64,000 bases of DNA from Desulfatiglandales bacterium (GTDB lineage: Bacteria > Desulfobacterota > DSM-4660 > Desulfatiglandales > Desulfatiglandaceae): assembly GCA_963662465.1 (NCBI GenBank), contig OY759599.1, positions 1,536,001 through 1,600,000 on the forward strand. The letters are read 5' to 3'. The notes under the pieces are model-generated. The model worked only from the letters and a program-made list of their open reading frames with translations, ran no database searches and was not told the DNA's origin. Shown piece after piece: positions 1-61,696 of the stretch (positions within the stretch are counted from its first letter, which is position 1; each line of letters starts with the position of its first letter). The translations under genes were made by a program, and so were the position numbers.

Positions 1-239
1 ACAGAATCTGCCGGATTTTAAAGGTGCATTTGGATCAATATATCGATGCCCGCGATGGCTTGTTGGACAAGGATCTGATTGGGTTTGATGGCCGTCTGTT
101 TCAGGTTCTTTCGCTTCCCAGACGTCCTGTGATTGTGAAACAGGTAAAGGAGATCCGGCAAGGAAATTGGGTCAGTCTTGGAGAAACCATAGAGGAAATC
201 TTTCGGGAGACTGGGTATGGAATCCATCCGAACCGTTGA
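1..239 (+). CDS. Winged-helix/replication-protein-like accessory ORF of the IS21 element (3' part only)
   Basis: Identical to the C-terminal part of 56157..56576; cut by the window edge. Confidence 0.75.
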   Translation, partial: RICRILKVHLDQYIDARDGLLDKDLIGFDGRLFQVLSLPRRPVIVKQVKEIRQGNWVSLGETIEEIFRETGYGIHPNR

Positions 240-1101
240 TATTCATTTGCTGGAGTTGCGTTACGCTCATTGCCGGATAATGAATCACCAGGCTTTAAAG
301 CGATTGAGGGATTCCATCGAAACTTACGGGCAGATCGTTCCGGCCCTGGCTATTGAAGAAAAAGACAAACTGATTCTGATTGATGGCTACCTGCGTGTTC
401 GAGCGCTTTGTGCTTGTGGAAAGGACCGGATATGTGTCCAATTCTCAAAAGAAAACGAACAAAATGCCATGTTTTCGCTTTTAACCAAGGCCAATGAACG
501 GCAATGGGAAGTCATTGAGCAGTCTGTTTTACTTCAGGAATTACATCGGCGTTTTGGGTGCAGCCTCTCCCATATTGCAACCCGAATAGGGCGCGACAAG
601 AGTTTTGTAAAACGGCGGCTGGACCTGGTTGAAGCCCTGCCGGAAAATATTTTGAGAACCGTGATTGCAGGCTCACTTTCAACCTGGGCTGCCAGCCGTG
701 TCATGGCGCCGTTGGCGCGCGCCAACGGTGAAGACGCACAAAAACTGTTGGCCCACCTGGAAAAAGAACCTCTATCCACAAGGGAACTGGCCCGTTTCTA
801 CGCACATTACCAGAAAAGCAACCGGTCTGTTCGAGACCACATGCTGGAAAATCCATCCCTTTTCATAAAAGTTCTCGAACAAAGAACCCAGTCTAAACAA
901 GCCAAAGAAGTTCATGATGGACCGGAAGGCAAATGGTTCAAGGATATTGAAATGGCATATGCGGTTCTCAAACGTCTGGTGAAAACCGTTTCGCATGTCC
1001 ATTACCCAAAAAGCGATCAGTTGAAGAAACAAACGCTCAAAACCTGGGTGAAAAAGATAGAAAAACAAGCACTGGAACTCAAGAAAGCGACCCAATTATG
1101 A
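217..1101 (+). CDS. ParB/Spo0J-like protein (ParB N-domain + HTH)
   Basis: 294 aa with 'SIETYGQIVP', the 'LIDGYLRVRAL' GxxRxxA motif and HTH 'SLSHIATRIGRDKSFVKRRL'; overlaps the istA start. Confidence 0.85.
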   Translation: MESIRTVDIHLLELRYAHCRIMNHQALKRLRDSIETYGQIVPALAIEEKDKLILIDGYLRVRALCACGKDRICVQFSKENEQNAMFSLLTKANERQWEVIEQSVLLQELHRRFGCSLSHIATRIGRDKSFVKRRLDLVEALPENILRTVIAGSLSTWAASRVMAPLARANGEDAQKLLAHLEKEPLSTRELARFYAHYQKSNRSVRDHMLENPSLFIKVLEQRTQSKQAKEVHDGPEGKWFKDIEMAYAVLKRLVKTVSHVHYPKSDQLKKQTLKTWVKKIEKQALELKKATQL

Positions 1102-2480
1102 TCCGACAATCCAAAAAAGATGCCATTGTGGAATTGAAAAAAACCGGCATGAGTTTGCGCGACATCGCCAAAACCCTGAAGGCCGGTCGCAATACCGTCA
1201 CGAAGGTTTTAGATGATCATGACGAAGAGGCGGTACCCCAAAGGAACTCCCGGTATGAAGAACATGTCCCGTTGATCCGCGAGCTTTTCAAGGAATGTAA
1301 AGGAAATGCCGTGCGAGTAGCCGAGGAACTGGAAAGCCGCCAACAGATCAAAATCCCTTATCAGAGTCTGACCTGGATTATGAGAAAGTACGAGATCCGG
1401 GAACGTAAAAAAAGACGGGCGGGCCAATACCATTTTAAACCCGGTCAGGAGATGCAGCATGATACGTCACCCCATCTGGTTGTCATTAATGGGAAAAAAA
1501 TGTCGACCCAGTGCGCGTCCCTGACCCTGGCCTTTTGCCGAAGGATTTTTATTCAGTATTACCCCTGTTTTACCCGGTTTGAGTGCAAGGTTTTCCTAAA
1601 AAAAGCATTCGAGTTTATGGACGGGGTGTGTTCCCGGTGCATGGTTGACAACACCAATGTTATTGTGGCCGGCGGCACCGGGCCTGATGCATTGATTGCG
1701 CCTGAAATGAAATACTTCGGCGATATGTATGGAACCCGGTTTGAGGCCCATGCTGTAGGAGACGCCAATCGAAGTGCTCGTGTGGAAAGGCCTTTTCATT
1801 TTGTGGAAAACAATTTTCTTCCCGGTAGAACATTTGTTAGCTGGCAGGATTTGAACCGGCAGGCAATCGACTGGTGCCGGAATACAAGCGATAAAAAGTT
1901 TAAACGGGCTTTAGGGATGACGCCGGATGAGGCCTATGTCATTGAAAAGCCATATCTCATTGATTTACCGGCATACCAGCCGCCAGTCTATGTGGCAGAA
2001 CACAGGGTAGCCGATGTTCAGGGATATGTGCACTTGGACACCAACCGCTATTCAGTCCCTGAAGCGCTGATTGGGAACTCCCTGGAAGTACAGAAACATT
2101 GGCTCAAGGTCATCGTTTACGACAAAAACACAAAAGTGGCGGAACATGACCGCATACTGGATAAACGCAACACCCGAACAACCCTGCCCGGTCACCATGT
2201 TCCCATTCGAAGAAAAAAAGATCCCCGAATCCCTTCAAAAGAAGAACAGCTGTTGACGGGAGAGGATGCCATCCTGGATGAGTATGTGGCTGAACTGAAG
2301 AAAAGAAGTCACGGTCGCGGTGTGGTCAAGTTACGTCGGTTGCTTCATCTGAAACGCACTTATCCCGGGGAACCTTTTTTGAAAGCCATAACACAGGCGC
2401 TTAAATATGGACTTTTTGATTTGTCGCGTCTGGAAAACATTATTCTCGATTATATCGCGGGAGACTTTTTTGATCTATGA
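1098..2480 (+). CDS. istA: IS21-family transposase IstA
   Basis: 460 aa; N-terminal HTH, DDE motifs QHDTS / MVDNT / ARVERPF, C-terminal 'TNRYSVP' domain; followed by IstB. Confidence 0.93.
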   Translation: MIRQSKKDAIVELKKTGMSLRDIAKTLKAGRNTVTKVLDDHDEEAVPQRNSRYEEHVPLIRELFKECKGNAVRVAEELESRQQIKIPYQSLTWIMRKYEIRERKKRRAGQYHFKPGQEMQHDTSPHLVVINGKKMSTQCASLTLAFCRRIFIQYYPCFTRFECKVFLKKAFEFMDGVCSRCMVDNTNVIVAGGTGPDALIAPEMKYFGDMYGTRFEAHAVGDANRSARVERPFHFVENNFLPGRTFVSWQDLNRQAIDWCRNTSDKKFKRALGMTPDEAYVIEKPYLIDLPAYQPPVYVAEHRVADVQGYVHLDTNRYSVPEALIGNSLEVQKHWLKVIVYDKNTKVAEHDRILDKRNTRTTLPGHHVPIRRKKDPRIPSKEEQLLTGEDAILDEYVAELKKRSHGRGVVKLRRLLHLKRTYPGEPFLKAITQALKYGLFDLSRLENIILDYIAGDFFDL

Positions 2481-3196
2481 AAAAGAAAATTGAACAGTTA
2501 CTCATTGATTTGAAGTTTAAAGGCATGCTGAAGGCTCTCGAAGAACAGTTGGCTTCGGCTGAAAAGAACGGTTTTTCCATTCACGAGGTCATCTACAATC
2601 TCCTGGCTGAGGAATTACGTTTCCGGCAGGAGCGCAGCATGATCTATCGGGTCCAGATTGCAAAGCTTCCATGGGAATGGACCCTCAACTCCTTTCCGTT
2701 TGATCTTCAGCCGGGAATACAGAAGAGCCGGATCATGACGTTGTCCGGCCTTGACTTTATCAGCCGAAGAGAAAACATCGTGTTCCATGGAAAAACCGGC
2801 GTCGGCAAAACGGGATTGGCCGTGGGGATCCTTCGTCAAGCCATTATTGCCGGGTACCGGGGGCGTTTTTATAATGTTCAGGATTTGCTGGATCAGCTCT
2901 ATGCGTCTTTGGCAGATCGGTCCACCCCGAAACTCCTCAATGCCCTTTGCAGATATGACCTGCTTCTGCTCGATGAACTGGGATACCTGACCCTCAAAAA
3001 AGAGCAGATGAACGCCTTTTTTAAACTCATGAAAGATCGCTATGAAGCCGGTCGGTCCACAATTATTACGACCAATCTTCAACCTGAACAATGGTATTCG
3101 CTGCTTGAACCAAAGGACATGGTCGATGCCTTGCTGGATCGTCTCAACCATCGCTGCATCAACATTCATATTGATGGTCCTTCCCTCAGAAAATGA
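2477..3196 (+). CDS. istB: IS21 helper AAA+ ATPase IstB
   Basis: Walker A GKTGVGKT, Walker B LLLLDELG, 'STIITTN', 'ALLDRL'. Confidence 0.95.
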   Translation: MKKKIEQLLIDLKFKGMLKALEEQLASAEKNGFSIHEVIYNLLAEELRFRQERSMIYRVQIAKLPWEWTLNSFPFDLQPGIQKSRIMTLSGLDFISRRENIVFHGKTGVGKTGLAVGILRQAIIAGYRGRFYNVQDLLDQLYASLADRSTPKLLNALCRYDLLLLDELGYLTLKKEQMNAFFKLMKDRYEAGRSTIITTNLQPEQWYSLLEPKDMVDALLDRLNHRCINIHIDGPSLRK

Positions 3197-3294
3197 GATG
3201 TTCGCCAAAGGGCCGGTTTTGAGGTCTGAATATCACCGGTCTGTTTGAATCTCGTTACACGAATATCAGAAATTACCTTGTCTTGGAGCTTGAA

Positions 3295-3492
3295 ATGAGA
3301 GGTGGAAAACGGGTAGGCGCCGGCCGAAGAAAGAAACCGGAACATTTGAGACGTGAACTGCTCACCATTCGTCTCCCCAAATGGATGATTCTACAGCTGA
3401 AAAAAAACGGGGAAATTGGATATTTGATTGAGGATCAATTGGCGAAGGGAGGCCTCCTGAATTTACCGGACGACTATGACATAGACAAATAG
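3295..3492 (+). CDS. Small basic DNA-binding protein (RGGKRxGAGR + ribbon-helix-helix-like)
   Basis: MRGGKRVGAGRRKK...LLTIRLPKWM; lies inside the element in both copies. Confidence 0.6.
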   Translation: MRGGKRVGAGRRKKPEHLRRELLTIRLPKWMILQLKKNGEIGYLIEDQLAKGGLLNLPDDYDIDK

Positions 3493-3703
3493 TTCCTCAA
3501 TAAGCATTGCCCTTAACCGAAAAATCTAATCCCCTCTTCTCTGCCATCACCATATTGATGGTATCCTCATCACTGATTCTTCAACCAGAACGCTACGTGT
3601 CTCACCAGCATTTTTAAAATACCATCTGATATACTCTTTCATGCAACCTCTAACAAATTTACAAGAAAACCCTTCTAAAAGGAAAAGACCAGTGCGCAAT
3701 ATC

Positions 3704-3753
3704 TGGTTCCGTTTGGAGTAGCAAAACTGGTTCCATTTTGGTTAGCGCCCAAG
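3704..3753. repeat. Right terminal inverted repeat of the IS21 element (two tandem binding repeats)
   Basis: TGGTTCCGTTTGGAGTAGC AAAAC TGGTTCCATTTTGGTTAGC GCCCAAG; its reverse complement aligns with the left end at 55366-55415. Confidence 0.85.
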
Positions 3754-52476: not shown

Positions 52477-52839
52477 TCAGGGTAAGCTAATTTTTTTCCA
52501 TAAAGGCGCGGCTCCTTTGGGGTTGGTGTTCCATAAAATCATCTGCAGTTCATGGGCGGCCAGCTGCTCCAAACGGCCATTTTCCGGCCACCAGTGAAAA
52601 CGACCACTCGACAGCCGTTTTTGGCAAAGCCAGAATCCCTGGCCATCATACCCGAGAATTTTGATGGTGGTCCCTCGTCTATTACGAAAAACAAAAATAT
52701 ACCCGGAGAAGGGATCTGATTTTAAAACACTGCGGCAAATGCCGGCCAGGCCATCAATGCCTTTTCGAAAATCCACCGGCTTCACCGCCACAAGTATCCG
52801 CATTTGGGGGCTGATCTGCATCATGACTGTTGCCTCCAA
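52477..52839 (-). CDS. tnpB: IS66 accessory protein TnpB (Orf2)
   Basis: PVDFRKGIDGL, FVFRNRR, KILGYDGQGFWLCQKRLSSGRF. Confidence 0.95.
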   Translation of the reverse strand: MEATVMMQISPQMRILVAVKPVDFRKGIDGLAGICRSVLKSDPFSGYIFVFRNRRGTTIKILGYDGQGFWLCQKRLSSGRFHWWPENGRLEQLAAHELQMILWNTNPKGAAPLWKKISLP

Positions 52840-53216
52840 AATGTTTGGATCAGGGATGCAACATCAATAGGCCCCTTCACATGGACTTTCATTCTGGCGC
52901 CTGCTTGTTCAAGCTCCAGATTTACTTCAACCGAATCAGCTGGTGGGTTGAGTGGTGGCAATTCTATGAATGTGGGTGGAAGAAGTTCTTCGGTCGGGCT
53001 GTTCGGAATACTTTCAATGCGATCCTTCAGGTCACTGTAATTCAGGTGCAATGCTTTGGAAAGTTTATTAATGCTGAAATTATCCACCAGGGAAACAGCA
53101 GCATCCCATAAGGACTCAGGAATACGGTCCCGTTTCTTGCGGTTTTTGCGCCAGTCGGAAAACTGGGCTTGTACTGCTTCGAGACGTTGCTTCTCTTTTG
53201 ATTTTTTCTTCGCCAT
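52821..53216 (-). CDS. IS66 accessory protein TnpA (Orf1)
   Basis: 'RIPESLWDAAV' HTH-like region and 'PTFIEL'; first gene after the IR, RBS AGGAGG. Confidence 0.8.
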   Translation of the reverse strand: MAKKKSKEKQRLEAVQAQFSDWRKNRKKRDRIPESLWDAAVSLVDNFSINKLSKALHLNYSDLKDRIESIPNSPTEELLPPTFIELPPLNPPADSVEVNLELEQAGARMKVHVKGPIDVASLIQTFWRQQS

Positions 53217-55615
53217 GGGCTATCCTCCTGAAAGGTTTTAGCCCAAGTTAAGTCCCCCGCGCAGCATTTCATGCGGGCTTGCCGAAAGGACACTTTGAAG
53301 TGGAAATCCTGTGCGATCCTCTCTCCCCGAATCAAACCCAGGTCCCGCGCCCTGGCGGCCACGTCATTTCGAAGATCCTGGAGGTGTTCGAACTTCATAT
53401 CAACAAACCCATCGTACAGGGCCGTTTTCCCCGGAAAAACACCGACGCCGGCGGCAACCGCCACAGAGCGGTCGCTGTTTCTATTGAGGTGTCCCACCGT
53501 CTCGTATCCAGCCAGGATACGGCAGACGTTCAAGAGGACAAGATTGGTGATCTCACTGCCCTCGCCCCTCTTGGGAGCGTAGACCTGGAGAGCCTCGCAG
53601 ACCCCCAGATCATCAATGAACTGCGCAAGCACAATCGGGCCAGGATCGCAAACCGCAAATGCTCGGCTCTGCATGCGATTCAAGAAATGTGCAAAGTGTG
53701 CGTTCAACTTCTTCGGAACCCGAAACTGGCCTGCCTCGGCCGCATCCTTTGCTGTCTTGAGAAGCGGCGCCGGTTTCTCCGGTACCTCTTCTCCCCAAAG
53801 ACCTCGCAATCGTACAGGCCTACGTTCCTTCTCCAAGAGTTCCCAGTATCGCAGAACTTCGTAAAGCGCCGATCGGGAACAGCGCAACTCCATCCGTGCC
53901 ATCAGCTCATCCAGACTGAAACGCGGATGTTCCATCTTCTCCTCAATGACACGTATTTCCAATTCATCGGAAATTTTCCCTCGACCCCGACCGGGCTGTA
54001 TCCAATCCACCAACCCCCACACACCGTAGTTCCGAAAGCGATACAGGTACTTGTAAAAAGTTGGTCGCGACATGCCATAGCGGCGTATTGTATCCCCTAA
54101 CTTGAAAGCATAGGAATTTCCATTTTTGATTTGGCATATCAAATAGTTGTTGCAGTGATGGCATTAAATGTGTCAAAAAAAGCACATTATGCATATGCCA
54201 TCAAACCAAAAAATTGATAAGGAGACTTTCCGGACGATTTTTATTGATCATTGGGAATCATTCAAAGAGCATCATCCAGGGTATGATAATTCGCAATATG
54301 AAGATCCGGTTCAGAAAATGCTTGGTTGCGGCAAGGAAAGCGCCGGATATAGCGAGCACCGGTGTGTTTATTGCGGTGGTGATGTTCGCCGGATAGGTTT
54401 TAGTTGCAAGAGCTGTTTTTGTTTATCCTGCGCCAAGAAATATGTTGACGATTTTGTCAGTCAAGTGAGTAGGGTGCTTCATGGGGGCATGAATTACCGT
54501 CACATTGTTTTGACAATTCCCGAGCAACTGAGAATCGTTTTTTATAAGGCTCGAAATGATGGACGTTTGTTATCGGCTTTTATGAGATGCGGGTACGAAT
54601 GTTTGGAGGATGTTGTCGGAACGGTTCTTCGGCGGAAACTGAAAATAGGAACGATCGTCGTTGTTCAAACGCATGGTCGATCCGGTCATTATAATCCGCA
54701 TTTGCATATCATCATGACAAGCGGTGGGATAAATGAAGATCTGTGCGGTTGGTTTGATTTAAGGTTCTTCAAGTATGAGATTATACATAAGAAATGGCAG
54801 TATCATCTATTCAGAATGCTCAAGTCCCATTTTAACAGCAGTGCGGTCGATAAACTTATTGATGAGCTGTGGAAAAAATACCCTAAAGGTTTGGTAGCCA
54901 ATGTGAGCAAGGGTAATGTTCCTGAGACATGTGGGGGTCTGGCGCGATATTTGGCGAAATATGTTGCATCTCCTCCGATAGCTCTGAGACGGATAATCAG
55001 TTATGATGGCCAATATGTTACCTATTGGTACAATGATCACATGACAAAATCCAGGAAGGTTGAAACCGTGGAAGTGGATGTTTTTATCGGTCGAATGGTT
55101 CAACACATAATGCCCAAAGGGTTCCAGCGGGTTCGTTATTATGGGCTACAGGCTACGAAAACTTTTAAGAAATGGTCGGAAGTAATACGGAAAGGGATGA
55201 AGGCTTTGGGGCGTGGGATTAAAGGAACGTATCAAGTCGTAAAAGCGAAAAGATATCGAGAACGTTATAAGGAGATCAGCTCTCAAGATCCTTTTTTGTG
55301 TCGTTATTGTGGCCATGAAATGGTGCTATGGAAGATATGGCATCCAAAATATGGAGTTTTATATGCTTCAACGCTAATCAAAACTGAACCAAGTTTGCTA
55401 ATGGAAATTGAACCATTGGCTGTCACCGCCGGTGAGTACGGCCCTCAGGTATAGCGGACGATGAGGGATCCATAAGTGGCGGCAAAGGAGTCGTTGATGT
55501 AGATTTACTTTTCAATAAATTTTTATAAAATCTATTTTCTTTGGATTTGGTTTTCTTCTTCCAAGACAGAGGCTTGGTTAAGTGGAAATGCGATTTACTT
55601 TGTAGAATGGATGGT

Positions 55616-55651
55616 GAAGGCCCGAAGTAGCCGCTTCGGGCCTTCTTTTTT
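55616..55651 (+). terminator. Strong intrinsic terminator inside the IS21 left end
   Basis: GAAGGCCCGAAG-TAGCCG-CTTCGGGCCTTC-TTTTTT, a 12-bp perfect stem plus U-tract. Confidence 0.85.
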
Positions 55652-55727
55652 GACCACCGGATAGAGCCGGAAGCCACACACACGCCAATTTTATATAAGT
55701 GTGTTTCCGGCCAATTGCAAGGCCGGA

Positions 55728-56144
55728 ATGATGGGAGATGTCCTTTTAAGAGTGGTTCAATGCCGATGTTGTGGTTGCTTTTTTCACGTCTGTCGGTCGT
55801 GTTGGCGTGGCCAGGCCTATTGTGGGGAACGATGTCGCAGGATACGCCAAAGACAGCTGCACCGGAAAGCTCAGGGGAAATACCGCAATTCGAAAAAAGG
55901 GAAAGAGCGCCGTCGTTTGTACGAAAAAACAAAAAAATCCAAAAAAAATGGACTGAACCCTGGTGATGATAGTTCAACACCTCAAAAAGACTGTGATATT
56001 GAACCCAAAAAGCGGTCGGGGAACCGACCCAGCTGTCTTTTTTGCGGGTCGATCGGGGTTGTTGTGGACCATTTTCCTCGCCGTGCTTATGCAGGGAGGG
56101 TTTTTTCAGATGTAACAGGCTTTGAGAAAACCCCATATCCATGA
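55728..56144 (+). CDS. Cys-rich basic putative zinc-finger protein
   Basis: CRCCGC-CRSC-YCGERC cluster, Arg/Lys-rich helix, C-terminal CLFCG; start uncertain (55701-55731). Confidence 0.65.
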   Translation: MMGDVLLRVVQCRCCGCFFHVCRSCWRGQAYCGERCRRIRQRQLHRKAQGKYRNSKKGKERRRLYEKTKKSKKNGLNPGDDSSTPQKDCDIEPKKRSGNRPSCLFCGSIGVVVDHFPRRAYAGRVFSDVTGFEKTPYP

Positions 56145-56156
56145 CAGGAGAAAAAA

Positions 56157-56576
56157 ATGATCAAAAAAAGAGTCCTTTTTCCCGAAAGAGTGCGTGTCAT
56201 CAATGGAAGCTTCGGCTTTCTGGAGCATCGTTTTTTGAGAAACGGCTTTTGGGAGAGCCTGAATCATCATGAGCTGCTGCTCTACATTTTTCTGGTGTTG
56301 GTATCTGACAAAAACGGGCTCTCTTATTATGGTTACGACAGAATCTGCCGGATTTTAAAGGTGCATTTGGATCAATATATCGATGCCCGCGATGGCTTGT
56401 TGGACAAGGATCTGATTGGGTTTGATGGCCGTCTGTTTCAGGTTCTTTCGCTTCCCAGACGTCCTGTGATTGTGAAACAGGTAAAGGAGATCCGGCAAGG
56501 AAATTGGGTCAGTCTTGGAGAAACCATAGAGGAAATCTTTCGGGAGACTGGGTATGGAATCCATCCGAACCGTTGA
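56157..56576 (+). CDS. Winged-helix/replication-protein-like accessory protein
   Basis: 139 aa, RBS AGGAG; 'ELLLYIFLVLVSDKNGLSYYGYDRICRIL' resembles an HTH replication-initiator N-domain. Confidence 0.75.
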   Translation: MIKKRVLFPERVRVINGSFGFLEHRFLRNGFWESLNHHELLLYIFLVLVSDKNGLSYYGYDRICRILKVHLDQYIDARDGLLDKDLIGFDGRLFQVLSLPRRPVIVKQVKEIRQGNWVSLGETIEEIFRETGYGIHPNR

Positions 56577-57438
56577 TATTCATTTGCTGGAGTTGCGTTA
56601 CGCTCATTGCCGGATAATGAATCACCAGGCTTTAAAGCGATTGAGGGATTCCATCGAAACTTACGGGCAGATCGTTCCGGCCCTGGCTATTGAAGAAAAA
56701 GACAAACTGATTCTGATTGATGGCTACCTGCGTGTTCGAGCGCTTTGTGCTTGTGGAAAGGACCGGATATGTGTCCAATTCTCAAAAGAAAACGAACAAA
56801 ATGCCATGTTTTCGCTTTTAACCAAGGCCAATGAACGGCAATGGGAAGTCATTGAGCAGTCTGTTTTACTTCAGGAATTACATCGGCGTTTTGGGTGCAG
56901 CCTCTCCCATATTGCAACCCGAATAGGGCGCGACAAGAGTTTTGTAAAACGGCGGCTGGACCTGGTTGAAGCCCTGCCGGAAAATATTTTGAGAACCGTG
57001 ATTGCAGGCTCACTTTCAACCTGGGCTGCCAGCCGTGTCATGGCGCCGTTGGCGCGCGCCAACGGTGAAGACGCACAAAAACTGTTGGCCCACCTGGAAA
57101 AAGAACCTCTATCCACAAGGGAACTGGCCCGTTTCTACGCACATTACCAGAAAAGCAACCGGTCTGTTCGAGACCACATGCTGGAAAATCCATCCCTTTT
57201 CATAAAAGTTCTCGAACAAAGAACCCAGTCTAAACAAGCCAAAGAAGTTCATGATGGACCGGAAGGCAAATGGTTCAAGGATATTGAAATGGTATATGCG
57301 GTTCTCAAACGTCTGGTGAAAACCGTTTCGCATGTCCATTACCCAAAAAGCGATCAGTTGAAGAAACAAACGCTCAAAACCTGGGTGAAAAAGATAGAAA
57401 AACAAGCACTGGAACTCAAGAAAGCGACCCAATTATGA
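56554..57438 (+). CDS. ParB/Spo0J-like protein
   Basis: Same as 217..1101 apart from one A/V change. Confidence 0.85.
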   Translation: MESIRTVDIHLLELRYAHCRIMNHQALKRLRDSIETYGQIVPALAIEEKDKLILIDGYLRVRALCACGKDRICVQFSKENEQNAMFSLLTKANERQWEVIEQSVLLQELHRRFGCSLSHIATRIGRDKSFVKRRLDLVEALPENILRTVIAGSLSTWAASRVMAPLARANGEDAQKLLAHLEKEPLSTRELARFYAHYQKSNRSVRDHMLENPSLFIKVLEQRTQSKQAKEVHDGPEGKWFKDIEMVYAVLKRLVKTVSHVHYPKSDQLKKQTLKTWVKKIEKQALELKKATQL

Positions 57439-58817
57439 TCCGACAATCCAAAAAAGATGCCATTGTGGAATTGAAAAAAACCGGCATGAGTTTGCGCGAC
57501 ATCGCCAAAACCCTGAAGGCCGGTCGCAATACCGTCACGAAGGTTTTAGATGATCATGACGAAGAGGCGGTACCCCAAAGGAACTCCCGGTATGAAGAAC
57601 ATGTCCCGTTGATCCGCGAGCTTTTCAAGGAATGTAAAGGAAATGCCGTGCGAGTAGCCGAGGAACTGGAAAGCCGCCAACAGATCAAAATCCCTTATCA
57701 GAGTCTGACCTGGATTATGAGAAAGTACGAGATCCGGGAACGTAAAAAAAGACGGGCGGGCCAATACCATTTTAAACCCGGTCAGGAGATGCAGCATGAT
57801 ACGTCACCCCATCTGGTTGTCATTAATGGGAAAAAAATGTCGACCCAGTGCGCGTCCCTGACCCTGGCCTTTTGCCGAAGGATTTTTATTCAGTATTACC
57901 CCTGTTTTACCCGGTTTGAGTGCAAGGTTTTCCTAAAAAAAGCATTCGAGTTTATGGACGGGGTGTGTTCCCGGTGCATGGTTGACAACACCAATGTTAT
58001 TGTGGCCGGCGGCACCGGGCCTGATGCATTGATTGCGCCTGAAATGAAATACTTCGGCGATATGTATGGAACCCGGTTTGAGGCCCATGCTGTAGGAGAC
58101 GCCAATCGAAGTGCCCGTGTGGAAAGGCCTTTTCATTTTGTGGAAAACAATTTTCTTCCCGGTAGAACATTTGTTAGCTGGCAGGATTTGAACCGGCAGG
58201 CAATCGACTGGTGCCGGAATACAAGCGATAAAAAGTTTAAACGGGCTTTAGGGATGACGCCGGATGAGGCCTATGTCATTGAAAAGCCATATCTCATTGA
58301 TTTACCGGCATACCAGCCGCCAGTCTATGTGGCAGAACACAGGGTAGCCGATGTTCAGGGATATGTGCACTTGGACACCAACCGCTATTCAGTCCCTGAA
58401 GCGCTGATTGGGAACTCCCTGGAAGTACAGAAACATTGGCTCAAGGTCATCGTTTACGACAAAAACACAAAAGTGGCGGAACATGACCGCATACTGGATA
58501 AACGCAACACCCGAACAACCCTGCCCGGTCACCATGTTCCCATTCGAAGAAAAAAAGATCCCCGAATCCCTTCAAAAGAAGAACAGCTGTTGACGGGAGA
58601 GGATGCCATCCTGGATGAGTATGTGGCTGAACTGAAGAAAAGAAGTCACGGTCGCGGTGTGGTCAAGTTACGTCGGTTGCTTCATCTGAAACGCACTTAT
58701 CCCGGGGAACCTTTTTTGAAAGCCATAACACAGGCGCTTAAATATGGACTTTTTGATTTGTCGCGTCTGGAAAACATTATTCTCGATTATATCGCGGGAG
58801 ACTTTTTTGATCTATGA
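57435..58817 (+). CDS. istA: IS21-family transposase IstA
   Basis: Same protein as 1098..2480. Confidence 0.93.
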   Translation: MIRQSKKDAIVELKKTGMSLRDIAKTLKAGRNTVTKVLDDHDEEAVPQRNSRYEEHVPLIRELFKECKGNAVRVAEELESRQQIKIPYQSLTWIMRKYEIRERKKRRAGQYHFKPGQEMQHDTSPHLVVINGKKMSTQCASLTLAFCRRIFIQYYPCFTRFECKVFLKKAFEFMDGVCSRCMVDNTNVIVAGGTGPDALIAPEMKYFGDMYGTRFEAHAVGDANRSARVERPFHFVENNFLPGRTFVSWQDLNRQAIDWCRNTSDKKFKRALGMTPDEAYVIEKPYLIDLPAYQPPVYVAEHRVADVQGYVHLDTNRYSVPEALIGNSLEVQKHWLKVIVYDKNTKVAEHDRILDKRNTRTTLPGHHVPIRRKKDPRIPSKEEQLLTGEDAILDEYVAELKKRSHGRGVVKLRRLLHLKRTYPGEPFLKAITQALKYGLFDLSRLENIILDYIAGDFFDL

Positions 58818-59533
58818 AAAAGAAAATTGAACAGTTACTCATTGATTTGAAGTTTAAAGGCATGCTGAAGGCTCTCGAAGAACAGTTGGCTTCGGCTGAA
58901 AAGAACGGTTTTTCCATTCACGAGGTCATCTACAATCTCCTGGCTGAGGAATTACGTTTCCGGCAGGAGCGCAGCATGATCTATCGGGTCCAGATTGCAA
59001 AGCTTCCATGGGAATGGACCCTCAACTCCTTTCCGTTTGATCTTCAGCCGGGAATACAGAAGAGCCGGATCATGACGTTGTCCGGCCTTGACTTTATCAG
59101 CCGAAGAGAAAACATCGTGTTCCATGGAAAAACCGGCGTCGGCAAAACGGGATTGGCCGTGGGGATCCTTCGTCAAGCCATTATTGCCGGGTACCGGGGG
59201 CGTTTTTATAATGTTCAGGATTTGCTGGATCAGCTCTATGCGTCTTTGGCAGATCGGTCCACCCCGAAACTCCTCAATGCCCTTTGCAGATATGACCTGC
59301 TTCTGCTCGATGAACTGGGATACCTGACCCTCAAAAAAGAGCAGATGAACGCCTTTTTTAAACTCATGAAAGATCGCTATGAAGCCGGTCGGTCCACAAT
59401 TATTACGACCAATCTTCAACCTGAACAATGGTATTCGCTGCTTGAACCAAAGGACATGGTCGATGCCTTGCTGGATCGTCTCAACCATCGCTGCATCAAC
59501 ATTCATATTGATGGTCCTTCCCTCAGAAAATGA
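58814..59533 (+). CDS. istB: IS21 helper ATPase IstB
   Basis: Same protein as 2477..3196. Confidence 0.95.
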   Translation: MKKKIEQLLIDLKFKGMLKALEEQLASAEKNGFSIHEVIYNLLAEELRFRQERSMIYRVQIAKLPWEWTLNSFPFDLQPGIQKSRIMTLSGLDFISRRENIVFHGKTGVGKTGLAVGILRQAIIAGYRGRFYNVQDLLDQLYASLADRSTPKLLNALCRYDLLLLDELGYLTLKKEQMNAFFKLMKDRYEAGRSTIITTNLQPEQWYSLLEPKDMVDALLDRLNHRCINIHIDGPSLRK

Positions 59534-59631
59534 GATGTTCGCCAAAGGGCCGGTTTTGAGGTCTGAATATCACCGGTCTGTTTGAATCTCGTTACACGAA
59601 TATCAGAAATTACCTTGTCTTGGAGCTTGAA

Positions 59632-59829
59632 ATGAGAGGTGGAAAACGGGTAGGCGCCGGCCGAAGAAAGAAACCGGAACATTTGAGACGTGAACTGCTC
59701 ACCATTCGTCTCCCCAAATGGATGATTCTACAGCTGAAAAAAAACGGGGAAATTGGATATTTGATTGAGGATCAATTGGCGAAGGGAGGCCTCCTGAATT
59801 TACCGGACGACTATGACATAGACAAATAG
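59632..59829 (+). CDS. Small basic RHH-like DNA-binding protein
   Basis: Same as 3295..3492. Confidence 0.6.
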   Translation: MRGGKRVGAGRRKKPEHLRRELLTIRLPKWMILQLKKNGEIGYLIEDQLAKGGLLNLPDDYDIDK

Positions 59830-60149
59830 TTCCTCAATAAGCATTGCCCTTAACCGAAAAATCTAATCCCCTCTTCTCTGCCATCACCATATTGATGGTA
59901 TCCTCATCACTGATTCTTCAACCAGAACGCTACGTGTCTCACCAGCATTTTTAAAATACCATCTGATATACTCTTTCATGCAACCTCTAACAAATTTACA
60001 AGAAAACCCTTCTAAAAGGAAAAGACCAGTGCGCAATATCTGGTTCCGTTTGGATTAGCAAAACTGGTTCCATTTTAGTTAGCGCCCAAGTTTATATGAC
60101 GAATATGAAAACATCAAAAACGACAGGTACGGCACGGTTACAGGACAAA

Positions 60150-60386
60150 ATGACAGCGGGGGTGGAAGGCGAGGACTTCCCGTTCGGCCCTCCTCCGGAG
60201 GAATATCCTTACCGTTGTTCCCATTGCCGGCATGAAATGAAGGTAAATGAAGCGATAATAGACGTCGAGATTGCAAAAGCAGAATATGAAGGAAGGAATG
60301 TGGAAGGCTTTATGCCCATTCTCGGTTGCCCTCAGTGCAATCGAGAAACAATGAAATATGCGCAAGGTAGAAAGCCCGCGCGTTAG
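60150..60386 (+). CDS. Small CxxC...CxxC accessory ORF of the IS91-like element
   Basis: YRCSHC...LGCPQC; overlaps the transposase 3' end and stops at the terminal palindrome. Confidence 0.6.
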   Translation: MTAGVEGEDFPFGPPPEEYPYRCSHCRHEMKVNEAIIDVEIAKAEYEGRNVEGFMPILGCPQCNRETMKYAQGRKPAR

Positions 60387-61696
60387 CGCGCTAAGTTCTT
60401 TTTCTGCTTCAAGCCCAGTTCCCGAAATAACTCGAAGCGTAATTGCAGCGCCTCCTCAGGAATGTAAAACGTACCCCTGCGGTCTTTCTTACTTCGCATT
60501 GACCCCGTTTGCGACGTCAACCACCGAATCGCCCGTACGCTCTGCTGGATTCCATACCAGTAGCTCTGGTCATTTTCGTCGCGGCTATTCCCGATTCCGT
60601 GGCAATGCAAGATATGGCTGATCGTTTTCAACGTGGGTCGCGGTGAAAGACCAAGTGCCTCGGCGAAGCGCAATATCATCGTTTCCGTGGCCTTGGGCCT
60701 GGTCATCTTCAGAATCAAAGCGAGACGTTCAAGCTTTTTGTTCTGCTTCTTTGCGCCCAACTCAGGGAAGAGTGCAGCACACCCGTGCTCGATGAATGCG
60801 GTCTCTAACCGGTAGAAGTCAGTCCTGGAGCAACAAGCAGCTTTGCAGGCGTCTGTTATGGAATTCCCTTCCATCCAAACACTACGAAGCATCTCGTAAT
60901 TCTGCACAGCCGGATCGTCGGTAAAGAAAGGTACATCAGTATTGGGGCGCCTTCGGCAGTGCATGGGCAACCGTTGAAGGGAGCTCGGCCAGATAGCTCA
61001 TTTGTTTTTGCGTGAAGATCATGGCCGATATTGTAAATATCTAAACTGGATAAGTCAAGCATTTTTGTATACCCCTATACCAAACACACAGAACTCGCCT
61101 CAATTTTATATAACCATTTGAAATAATAAAGTATTTTGCTGATAGCCATGATCAGACAAGGCCGGAGCTCGGATCGATCGCTGATAGGATTTCCACCACA
61201 GGGATAAAATCTCCTTATTTATAAAGGGATTGGAGCTCAACTCCCGCGTTTTGCGACTATTCAGTTAGGGGGTTTACTTTTTGTTCGGAATGGCTATTTA
61301 CACCGCAATGGAATGTCAAACTTTTTCAGCTAATTGCATAGGAAGTGCATCCGATGACACGACAAAAACTGTATCGAAAAAGGGTCCGGAATGGTCTGAT
61401 TTTGGAAAAAAATGGGCTGAATCTATCGGCCAGGCGCTTTACTATTCGATCCAGACGGGGAAAAGGGCAGGGGTAGTACTCATACTGGAAAAACCGGGTG
61501 ATTATAAATATTGGATTCGATTAAATACCATTATTGAGCATTTCAGTTTGCCCATTGACACATGGAAAACAGCGCCGCCGGGCGGTCTTGATTGATGTTT
61601 TTCACTGTACAAATCCGGATGCTACTCTGAAAAGGCTGACAGATCAATCCTTCACTTTTTTTGAAAATATTGAGATTCAAGAATAATATAGGAAGT

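Follow-up and report, generated by a model that had tools for sequence, protein, structure and literature searches.

A branch of IS21-family elements with a ParB-like gene, an internal palindrome and a zinc-finger gene: a candidate control module for istAB

Results

The window, a 64,000-nucleotide stretch of contig OY759599.1 (GenBank assembly GCA_963662465.1) from a Desulfatiglandales bacterium, contains a real and recently active IS21-family element of 4725 bp. It belongs to a large and apparently undescribed IS21 branch carrying a zinc-finger gene and a ParB-like gene with an internal palindrome; no description of a ParB-bearing IS21 branch was found in the literature searched, the ISfinder and TnCentral catalogues lying outside that search. 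On the best reading, taken at roughly even odds (probability about 0.5), these genes form a control module for istAB of the KorB/BisD kind, in which the ParB-like protein would bind the palindrome in its own gene and, probably with the zinc-finger protein, set the expression of parB-istA-istB.

Boundaries, ends and copies

The element is delimited by the following features.

55366-60090: IS21-family element, 4725 bp, intact, multicopy
55358..55365, no strand: target site duplication, left copy, 8 bp, inside an IS91-family transposase gene
60091..60098, no strand: target site duplication, right copy
55366..55415, plus strand: left terminal inverted repeat, starting 5'-CT, with sub-repeats 55373-55391 and 55397-55415, 24 bp apart
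60041..60090, minus strand: right terminal inverted repeat, ending AG-3', with two sub-repeats 24 bp apart
55616..55651, plus strand: terminator-like hairpin, 13 pairs and a T-run, core 8-mers recurring in 12-13 of 18 type-A elements
1..3753, plus strand: right-hand portion of another copy, at 99.9% identity, truncated by the window start

The boundaries and the 8-bp duplication are exact, since the 8-mer is single in 12 further copies of the IS91-family element that is interrupted here and contigs of public runs end at 55366 and 60090, matching the element borders. The earlier note, which had this duplication-bounded unit present twice, was right about the borders and too low in its count: the genome holds 25 end-paired copies, 19 of them with target duplications of 5-8 bp, and in the genome the other copy seen in the window is split by a further IS and has no duplication. 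Duplications of 4-8 bp are the range of the IS21 family. The flanks are mismatched in 6 of the 25 copies, with one pair reciprocal, which indicates that rearrangements between copies still happen.

Instead of TG...CA, the ends read 5'-CT...AG-3'. Across the clade, whose elements are 3.9-5.0 kb long, CT or CC rather than TG...CA begins 77 of the 80 distinct ends, and such ends were seen only among ParB-bearing elements; in the distant ParB lineages, most of whose loci are too short, the end matrix located no ends. An end-to-end joint, as expected of the circular intermediate proposed earlier, was found in none of four contig sets, a weak test as contigs drop rare forms; the single joint considered as a circle junction is the empty site of other IS91 copies. 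Contigs from RNA libraries span the element, which is coverage without demonstration of transcription, and no Rfam family was matched in the element, hairpin included (best E 0.23).

Gene layout and the transposition proteins

Between these ends lie six genes, with two further sites inside them.

55701..56144, plus strand: zinc-finger gene of type A, probably starting at ATG 55728 and homologous to the more frequent type B
55973..56002, plus strand: candidate promoter internal to the zinc-finger gene, with a weak -35, a spacer of 18 bp and an extended -10, picked by eye from conserved codons
56157..56576, plus strand: winged-helix gene, HTH_36-like, optional in the clade
56554..57438, plus strand: ParB-like gene, 294 aa, with ParB NTP-binding fold, HTH and all-helical C-terminus
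57046..57065, no strand: perfect 20-bp palindrome (conserved core 16 bp, 57048-57063) in parB-like codons 165-171, probable binding site of the ParB-like protein
57435..58817, plus strand: istA, DDE transposase, 460 aa, D122, D184 and E230 invariant, start overlapping the parB-like stop
58814..59533, plus strand: istB, AAA+ helper ATPase, 239 aa, NF038214 at 225 bits against a cutoff of 200
59620..59829, plus strand: 69-aa gene without family match, a passenger common to other mobile elements of the genome

The six open reading frames and the junctions 56144/56157, 56554/56576 and 57435/57438 are all as first described, so the six-gene layout is correct at this locus; four of the genes make up the conserved unit. 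DNA cutting and joining are likely carried out by IstA and IstB, as in IS5376. The DDE residues of IstA align with those of IS5376 IstA (E 1.9e-36), and the element shares with IS21 and IS5376 the istA-istB operon with an intact DDE triad and istB directly downstream, an IstB that passes NF038214, ends with multiple sub-repeats and short target duplications; two sub-repeats at each end are likewise described for IS5376 in the cited part of PMC10122671. Unlike IS21 and IS5376, it belongs to elements of 3.9-5.0 kb with conserved zinc-finger and ParB-like genes 5' of istA and an internal palindrome, and so departs from the canonical form of istA and istB only. Its IstA has a longer helical C-terminus and matches NF033546 at E 1.9e-37 but with 129 bits, under the curated cutoff of 160. 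The ends, CT/CC here, are terminal CA-3' in IS5376 as far as PMC10122671 is cited here. Terminal TG...CA is usual in the IS21 family, not strictly defining.

A predicted complex of the ParB-like protein with IstA and IstB scored 0.16 against a mark of 0.32 and counts neither way. Two candidate ParB-IstA fusions among the 50% representatives were rejected: the N-terminus of P0368 is unstructured, and P0353 looks like read-through of two truncated genes.

Conservation of the accessory genes

The ParB-like gene lies 5' of istA in 75 of 75 related loci with room and in 88 of 88 rows with room of the 92-row clade, the only exception in the clade being a chimeric istA. The zinc-finger gene is present in 55 of 57 related loci, the winged-helix gene in 6 of 57, with 4 changes on the IstA tree (FastTree, several long branches), and the gene first called RHH-like in 1 of 42. 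The earlier view of the accessory genes as core machinery rather than cargo is thus upheld for the ParB-like and zinc-finger genes, which are fixed in the clade and not mostly lacking from the closest IstA homologues; it finds no support for the patchy winged-helix gene and for the RHH-like gene. The co-phylogeny proposed as a check shows ParB evolving at the rate of IstA (slope 1.01, r 0.93), a co-divergence that linkage alone predicts.

The accessory slot is modular, holding zinc finger plus ParB, zinc finger plus winged helix, zinc finger alone, or all three. In the ParB-less sister group, whose elements are multicopy with duplications present, the winged helix is the usual accessory, and a relative 49% identical to the winged-helix protein heads a tyrosine-recombinase trio in the same genome. 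A modular slot, together with winged helices heading recombinase trios, fits regulators better than transposase cofactors.

The ParB-like protein and its palindrome

The fold of the ParB-like protein is best matched by ParB, Noc and KorB (8qa9). Its GxxRxxA motif, noted before, is present as G57-R60-A63, and R20, S33, G38, Q39, P42, G57 and R60 of Box I and Box II (GxxR) are kept at 93-99% in 110 rows. The Box II glutamate of GERR, which has a catalytic role in ParB, is replaced by Tyr58 here and by Tyr/Phe in the alignment, and the EN pair of Box III is not conserved, R95 being the only Box III residue kept. Since both the glutamate and the EN pair are missing, clamp closure is only hypothetical, and sliding of the protein may not occur. 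We take the Box III Asn lacking here to be the equivalent of KorB N146. According to the cited part of PMC11790492, the N146A substitution blocks both hydrolysis and long-range repression by KorB; Box III is, as excerpted from 10.1101/2025.10.10.680097, often divergent in orphan ParBs, and the nucleotide preference of ParB-like proteins is there called unpredictable from sequence.

With chromosomal ParB-parS and Noc-NBS the system shares the NTP-binding fold, the HTH and a 16-bp palindrome. Unlike them, it scores below the TIGR00180 cutoff (44 bits against 58), has different recognition residues and a different site, and lacks the components of a ParABS system: no parA is among the six open reading frames, and the protein, which opens directly with the NTP-binding fold, does not have the N-terminal arm for ParA binding whose motif is given in the cited part of 10.1101/2025.10.10.680097. 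The host genome has its own separate ParB.

The palindrome is likely the recognition site of the ParB-like protein itself, because silent positions are kept, both arms change together and a recognition-helix residue is tracked. Across 73 loci, silent-site constraint in the three genes is strongest at the palindrome (window score 47.5 versus about 20 at best in istA/istB), and at least 7 of 8 pairs are found in 78 of 97 ParB rows, compared with 7.6 (maximum 15) after synonymous recoding. Variants alter both arms together, with the encoded residues dragged along. Base 4 of the half-site is G in 48 of the 49 rows with Arg133 and a different base in 24 of 24 with another residue; the independent switches behind this match are few, at 5 changes each on the tree and only 2 independent pairs on well-supported branches, and not significant. 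Genome-wide, the site occurs only in the 25 element copies and one relic. ParB rows without the palindrome are L137 and L138 and the distant lineages L166-L168, L187, L205, L206 and L215.

The zinc-finger gene

Type A has invariant C12, C22, C25, C32, C36, C103 and C106, followed by a long basic helix. The candidate promoter at 55973..56002 was not listed by the promoter scan. Elements with the type-B zinc finger carry their own triple DNA repeat, which the type-A gene of the window element lacks: at least two repeats lie 5' of istA in 33 of 46 type-B elements with ParB, in 6 of 11 type-B elements with winged helix and in 0 of 24 type-A elements. Alanine in the in-frame repeats is encoded by GCA in 79 of 79 cases versus 90 of 682 elsewhere, and the third copy, in another frame or intergenic, lies directly upstream of a -10-like box (by eye). 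The structural model (pLDDT 70.5) found no Foldseek match at E up to 0.001, with weak YacG rows; the best VIA Z, 4.3, covers the long helix only, and sequence matches in the PDB include none of note. Atlas returned unnamed clusters only, with NinG as a lead at 0.87.

A control module and its alternatives

In the control module proposed here, a dimer of the ParB-like protein would read the palindrome with its HTH and, with NTP bound via the retained Box I and Box II residues, would spread from the site in the manner of KorB and BisD, across 0.5-1.1 kb, until it reaches the promoter region upstream. The zinc-finger protein would act on its own sites near the internal promoter and could be the partner fixing or releasing the clamp, the role of KorA or BisC. 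Because every copy bears one site and makes the protein, such a circuit would count copies and throttle transposition. The winged-helix protein would serve as an interchangeable regulator, with the 69-aa gene as passenger, and the net effect of the module could be repression or activation.

Like KorB-KorA of plasmid RK2, as presented in the cited part of PMC11790492, the element combines a ParB-fold protein of a mobile element, a palindromic operator, a partner DNA-binding protein and possible action at a distance. It differs in that ParA/IncC and the arm to bind it are absent, the one site lies within the parB-like gene, Box III is degenerate, the host is an insertion sequence and the partner would be a Cys-rich zinc finger. 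BisD-BisC of ICEclc is likewise, in the part of PMC12409273 drawn on, a ParB-like clamp on parS-like sites of its own element that controls mobility genes with a second factor. BisD has an activator domain and acts over 50 kb of the ICE, whereas the element here is under 5 kb and no such domain was identified in its ParB-like protein.

The evidence fits regulation best, and a role in cis in synapsis or immunity remains compatible with it; the altered ends, like the overlap of parB with istA, suggest a link with the transposase that goes beyond regulation alone. It is conceivable, though we would bet against it, that a ParB-type sliding clamp and its parS-like site form a third core component beside IstA and IstB, which marks the copy in cis and pairs or licenses the CT/CC ends or shields the copy from IstB; this would be the first NTP-gated clamp in DDE transposition. 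One form of this idea, which we regard as doubtful, makes the palindrome a transposition enhancer comparable to the Mu enhancer or strong gyrase site: loaded ParB-like protein would spread to both ends and help IstA to pair the correct ones, perhaps being needed for CT/CC ends. The single internal site per element, the overlap of parB stop and istA start with ParB in every row with room, the matched rates of ParB and IstA, the restriction of CT/CC ends to ParB-bearing elements and a relic in which the site persists outside genes, 270 bp away from a solitary right end, are in its favour. However, the site sits asymmetrically, 1.7 kb from one end and 3.0 kb from the other, sister elements are mobile with a winged helix instead of ParB, and the mismatched flanks show inter-copy rearrangements persisting; moreover, IS5376 IstA synapses ends without such a factor in the cited part of PMC10122671. 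Target immunity, by spreading of the ParB-like protein around resident copies and exclusion of IstB from that DNA, is unlikely. Only self DNA is marked by the site, copies are never nested (the nearest two start 24.8 kb apart), and immunity has been suggested for IS21 but left unexplained in the portion of PMC11208146 cited; yet the spacing of the copies does not differ from random (7 gaps below 100 kb versus 6.9 expected, 1 below 25 kb versus 1.9; low power with 26 positions), and other IS, another IS21 type among them, have inserted in these elements.

The parS-like size and symmetry of the site, and primase-like parts in relatives (a CHC2 gene in L042) that hint at a replicative step, would suit a miniature system that partitions or tethers a circular intermediate after excision. 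We hold this to be very improbable, given the missing parA and ParA-binding arm and the lack of an end-to-end joint in contigs, which would drop rare forms. No more probable are accessory proteins that, like the target selectors of Tn7, direct IstB to particular DNA, a role raised earlier that finds no support here. As with TniQ, TnsD, TnsE and TnsF, extra genes share an operon with a DDE transposase and an AAA+ ATPase; a zinc finger belongs to the TniQ core according to the cited part of PMC10293859, a survey which there reports no target selector for IS21; and multicopy DNA holds 7 of the 19 insertions flanked by duplications, compared with 16.7% of 1000 sites drawn at random (one-sided p 0.028, uncorrected, from one of five tests of this sort). 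By contrast with Tn7-like systems, no accessory protein matches TniQ and no attachment-site preference is seen: the 19 target sites are unrelated, without consensus or strand bias (15/25, p 0.42), insertions are no nearer site-like host sequences than random (p 0.49), and near-perfect sites occur only inside elements. Least probable of all, the extra genes would have travelled along for a long time as passengers, with a self-contained function that has nothing to do with mobility. This is true of the 69-aa gene and partly of the winged helix, and linkage alone would give the co-divergence; against it, every clade member with room has the ParB-like gene, the chimeric istA excepted, dN/dS is below 1 wherever measurable, and close relatives of the ParB-like protein preceded istA in 5 of the 6 cases where downstream DNA was available.

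Significance and distribution of the branch

IS21 is the structural model for transposases requiring an AAA+ helper and is regarded as a two-gene system for which we know of no selector or dedicated regulator. The branch adds a ParB-like protein, a candidate site defined base by base and natural protein-site variants, which open three questions to direct testing: by what means IS21 elements restrict their own copy number, whether an extra factor takes part in IS21 immunity or end-pairing, and whether ParB clamps serve transposition as they do plasmid and ICE gene control. Its changed ends show an IstA lineage cutting after G, not after CA.

The 69-aa gene, earlier labelled RHH, matches no family of Pfam, NCBIfam or PHROGs, and is also located in other element types. 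No relatives of IstA were found in viral contigs, and plasmids yielded one close relative only. The ParB-like query had no match among plasmids, though the plasmid with the IstA relative has the gene, which indicates that single-sequence searches miss distant members. At least 561 confirmed metagenome stretches carry the branch, and records titled Deltaproteobacteria, Planctomycetota and a Thermoplasmatales archaeon are among the carriers.

Boundaries and recent movement of the element

The unit at window positions 55366-60090 was confirmed with an 8-bp target duplication at both flanks, and the six ORFs with their tight gene junctions proved to be as the earlier note described them. The element breaks an IS91-family transposase gene, and the 8-mer is single in the 12 other copies of that host. 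In the 8.16-Mb complete genome, 26 left-end and 26 right-end matches resulted in 25 pairs, 19 of which carry duplications (7 bp in nine, 8 bp in eight, 5 bp and 6 bp in one each); 21 copies have no interruption and share identities of 99.4% or more, and four contain nested insertions. Contigs from public runs also end at 55366 and 60090, one of them with a different flank. The duplications, the near-identical copies and the contig ends at the same two positions therefore establish the element as real and recently mobile.

The surroundings (window 52821-55365 and 60091-60970) hold an IS91-family element (13 copies) and HTH/transposase-like fragments as nested mobile DNA. Six copies have no duplications. 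The right flank of one of the copies at genome 5352463 and 6067428 matches the left flank of the other in opposite orientation, a mark of rearrangement between copies. In two copies (locus L270, genome 1533471 and 5974989) the same 1.9-kb IS, which has DruA-like and DDE-associated domains, is nested where the zinc-finger gene likely starts; a 7-bp duplication flanks one of these two copies, so that a copy already disrupted may have transposed in trans.

Conserved gene content

IstA was used as the search query to avoid selecting for accessory genes. Among the best 80 of at least 561 confirmed metagenome stretches (42-70% identity, some near-duplicates), a ParB-like gene lies 5′ of istA in 77, including 75/75 loci with more than 300 bp upstream; a zinc-finger gene is present in 55 of the 57 loci with room (18 type A and 37 type B, homologous to each other), the winged-helix gene in 6/57 and the 69-aa gene in 1/42. 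When 139 non-redundant IstA proteins were placed on a tree with FastTree, 92 rows formed a clade (support 98) made up of 88 ParB rows and four cut by contig ends; eight further ParB rows are distant lineages, and 20 rows form a separate group that has a zinc finger, either together with a winged helix or by itself. The ParB-less neighbour of the clade, L062, has a chimeric istA (L062:4089-5708), which derives its N-terminal half from an IS21 group lacking ParB and its C-terminal one from the ParB clade.

Searching 401 genomes in the reverse direction gave ten non-self matches at E 2e-30 or better, with istA next in five, a contig edge in four, and one broken copy that has no istA in the nearest 1.5 kb; of the weaker matches, the four inspected were ordinary parAB genes. 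A winged-helix relative (49% identical) occurs 5′ of three tyrosine recombinases at two places in the same genome, and the 69-aa gene recurs next to a large serine recombinase and in an element with an IstA-Toprim fusion. From the conservation counts and these other contexts, the fixed unit is therefore zinc finger, ParB-like gene, istA and istB. To the earlier note the accessory genes had looked like core machinery; the closest IstA homologues mostly carry the ParB-like and zinc-finger genes, for which that view is supported, and mostly lack the winged-helix and 69-aa genes, for which it is not supported. The co-phylogeny proposed there was seen in 73 loci as a ParB-IstA distance-matrix correlation of 0.93 (IstA-IstB, 0.96), which linkage alone would give. 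dN/dS was below 1 wherever measurable (ParB 0.21, IstA 0.16, winged helix 0.31 and zinc finger 0.40 versus the NaphS2 element).

At the two recombinase loci (L268:73-4176 and genome 284119-288273), a Cys-containing 203-216-aa gene and a winged-helix gene precede the three recombinases in a RIT-like layout.

Core enzymes and ends

The IstA of the element matches IS5376 IstA, with D122, D184 and E230 invariant, and IstB scores above the cutoff of the curated IstB model. Each end contains two sub-repeats 24 bp apart, an arrangement like that of IS5376, whose ends also have two sub-repeats according to the available text of PMC10122671; unlike IS5376, the element reads 5′-CT...AG-3′. In related ParB-bearing loci, 77 of 80 distinct ends begin with CT (50) or CC (27), the outer six bases having been left unscored by the end-finding matrix, and the end position was set by duplications in eight loci, among which are two pairs that each represent a single element. 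The termini of the ParB-less multicopy sister elements are TG...CA or TA...TA. The end matrix matched 0/36 ParB-less loci versus 7/24 ParB loci, the majority of which lacked the length to contain an end.

Sister IS21 group (locus, coordinates, description)
L241, 2187-5550, zinc finger and winged helix, no ParB, multicopy
L181, 2161-5518, zinc finger and winged helix, no ParB, multicopy
L179, 2584-6087, zinc finger and winged helix, no ParB, multicopy

The ParB-like protein and its candidate site

For the ParB-like protein, the predicted structure (pLDDT 89) and the profile both find matches in ParB, Noc and KorB. It retains the residues of Boxes I and II; Tyr58 replaces the GERR glutamate, the Box III EN is not conserved, and the N-terminal arm for ParA is missing. 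In the available text of a ParB-fold survey (10.1101/2025.10.10.680097), orphan ParBs frequently have a divergent Box III, nucleotide preference is not predictable, and the words transposon and IS21 are absent.

The strongest synonymous constraint of all three genes falls on parB-like codons 165-170, which in the window form a perfect 20-bp palindrome (57046-57065), likely the site of the ParB-like protein. At least 7/8 pairs of the 16-bp core are kept in 78 of 97 ParB rows (a total in which frameshifts make two loci appear twice), versus 7.6 after synonymous recoding; about nine distant rows lack the palindrome. In variant lineages both arms change together and the encoded residues follow. 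Half-site base 4 is G with recognition-helix Arg133 in 48/49 rows and is not G with another residue at 133 in 24/24, as would be expected from direct arginine-guanine readout, a match not statistically shown because only two independent residue-site pairs lie on well-supported branches. Within one mismatch, the genome contains 26 sites, 25 in copies and one outside any gene. This last site, in non-coding DNA (G000:C1:3732980-3733252), copies 18 bp of the palindrome perfectly and lies 270 bp from the solitary right end of a related element, near which no left end was found.

Repeats of the zinc-finger gene

In type-B genes a direct repeat occurs as two copies, mostly 81 bp apart; a variant third copy follows after another 50-80 bp, in another frame or intergenic, just 5′ of a -10-like box (read by eye). 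Codon choice indicates that the constraint acts on DNA, since the Ala codon is GCA at 79/79 motif positions versus 90/682 elsewhere and the preceding codon ends in TT at 79/79 versus 341/1143. Two or more repeats occur in 33/46 type-B elements with ParB, 6/11 with winged helix and 0/24 type-A elements; the repeats track zinc-finger type, not ParB. Type-A elements, the window's kind, share a terminator-like hairpin upstream and a conserved block within the gene at a promoter-like position; fold comparison of the window's type-A protein gave no clear match.

Possible roles of the accessory genes

A ParB-fold protein with a single self-site, a partner that has sites of its own close to a promoter, and an accessory slot open to exchange are most simply explained as a control module like KorB-KorA or BisD-BisC, as these appear in the available text of PMC11790492 and PMC12409273, an account to which we assign a probability of about 0.5. 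Since parB and istA overlap and the ends are changed, the ParB-like protein may instead act in cis; a part in end pairing seems rather unlikely, and one in immunity, called unresolved for IS21 in the available text of PMC11208146, is more doubtful still.

Target selection, which the earlier note had suggested, is unlikely: the 19 target sites compared showed no common consensus or strand bias, and the insertions no closeness to site-like host DNA. The spacing of copies in the genome was not unusual, and a mild excess of insertions in multicopy DNA (7/19, p 0.028 uncorrected) may reflect tolerance there. The available text of a Tn7 survey has IS21 without a reported target selector (PMC10293859). 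Partition of circles is also improbable, no circle junction having appeared in four contig sets, a weak test. Nor are the accessory genes likely to be pure cargo; the ParB-like and zinc-finger genes belong to the fixed unit, and the winged-helix and 69-aa genes do not.

Related elements

By its enzymes the element belongs to the IS21 family, of which its accessory module, its ends and the site inside it make it a new form. No published description of such elements was found by full-text searches of the literature, main texts only, with ISfinder, TnCentral and most subscription journals outside the scope. The IstA-Toprim element (L063:8238-10943, also L065 and L066; three genome copies) encodes a 901-aa IstA that carries a DnaG/Toprim primase-like domain as a fusion, and after it come two small relatives of the 69-aa gene and then istB; relatives of about 900 aa occur in many genomes of the class. 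It interrupts one copy of a second ParB-type IS21 element of the same genome (L064:3474-8501 and L063; 8094473-8099500 and 6813482-6822866), whose IstA is 31% identical, whose ends read CTA, and which has a 7-bp duplication as well as a palindrome variant of its own. A complete member with an 8-bp duplication resides on plasmid pHRM2a of Desulforapulum autotrophicum (L042:3195-7931), where zinc-finger, ParB-like, istA and istB genes are joined by a CHC2 zinc-finger gene, providing a cultured source for experiments.
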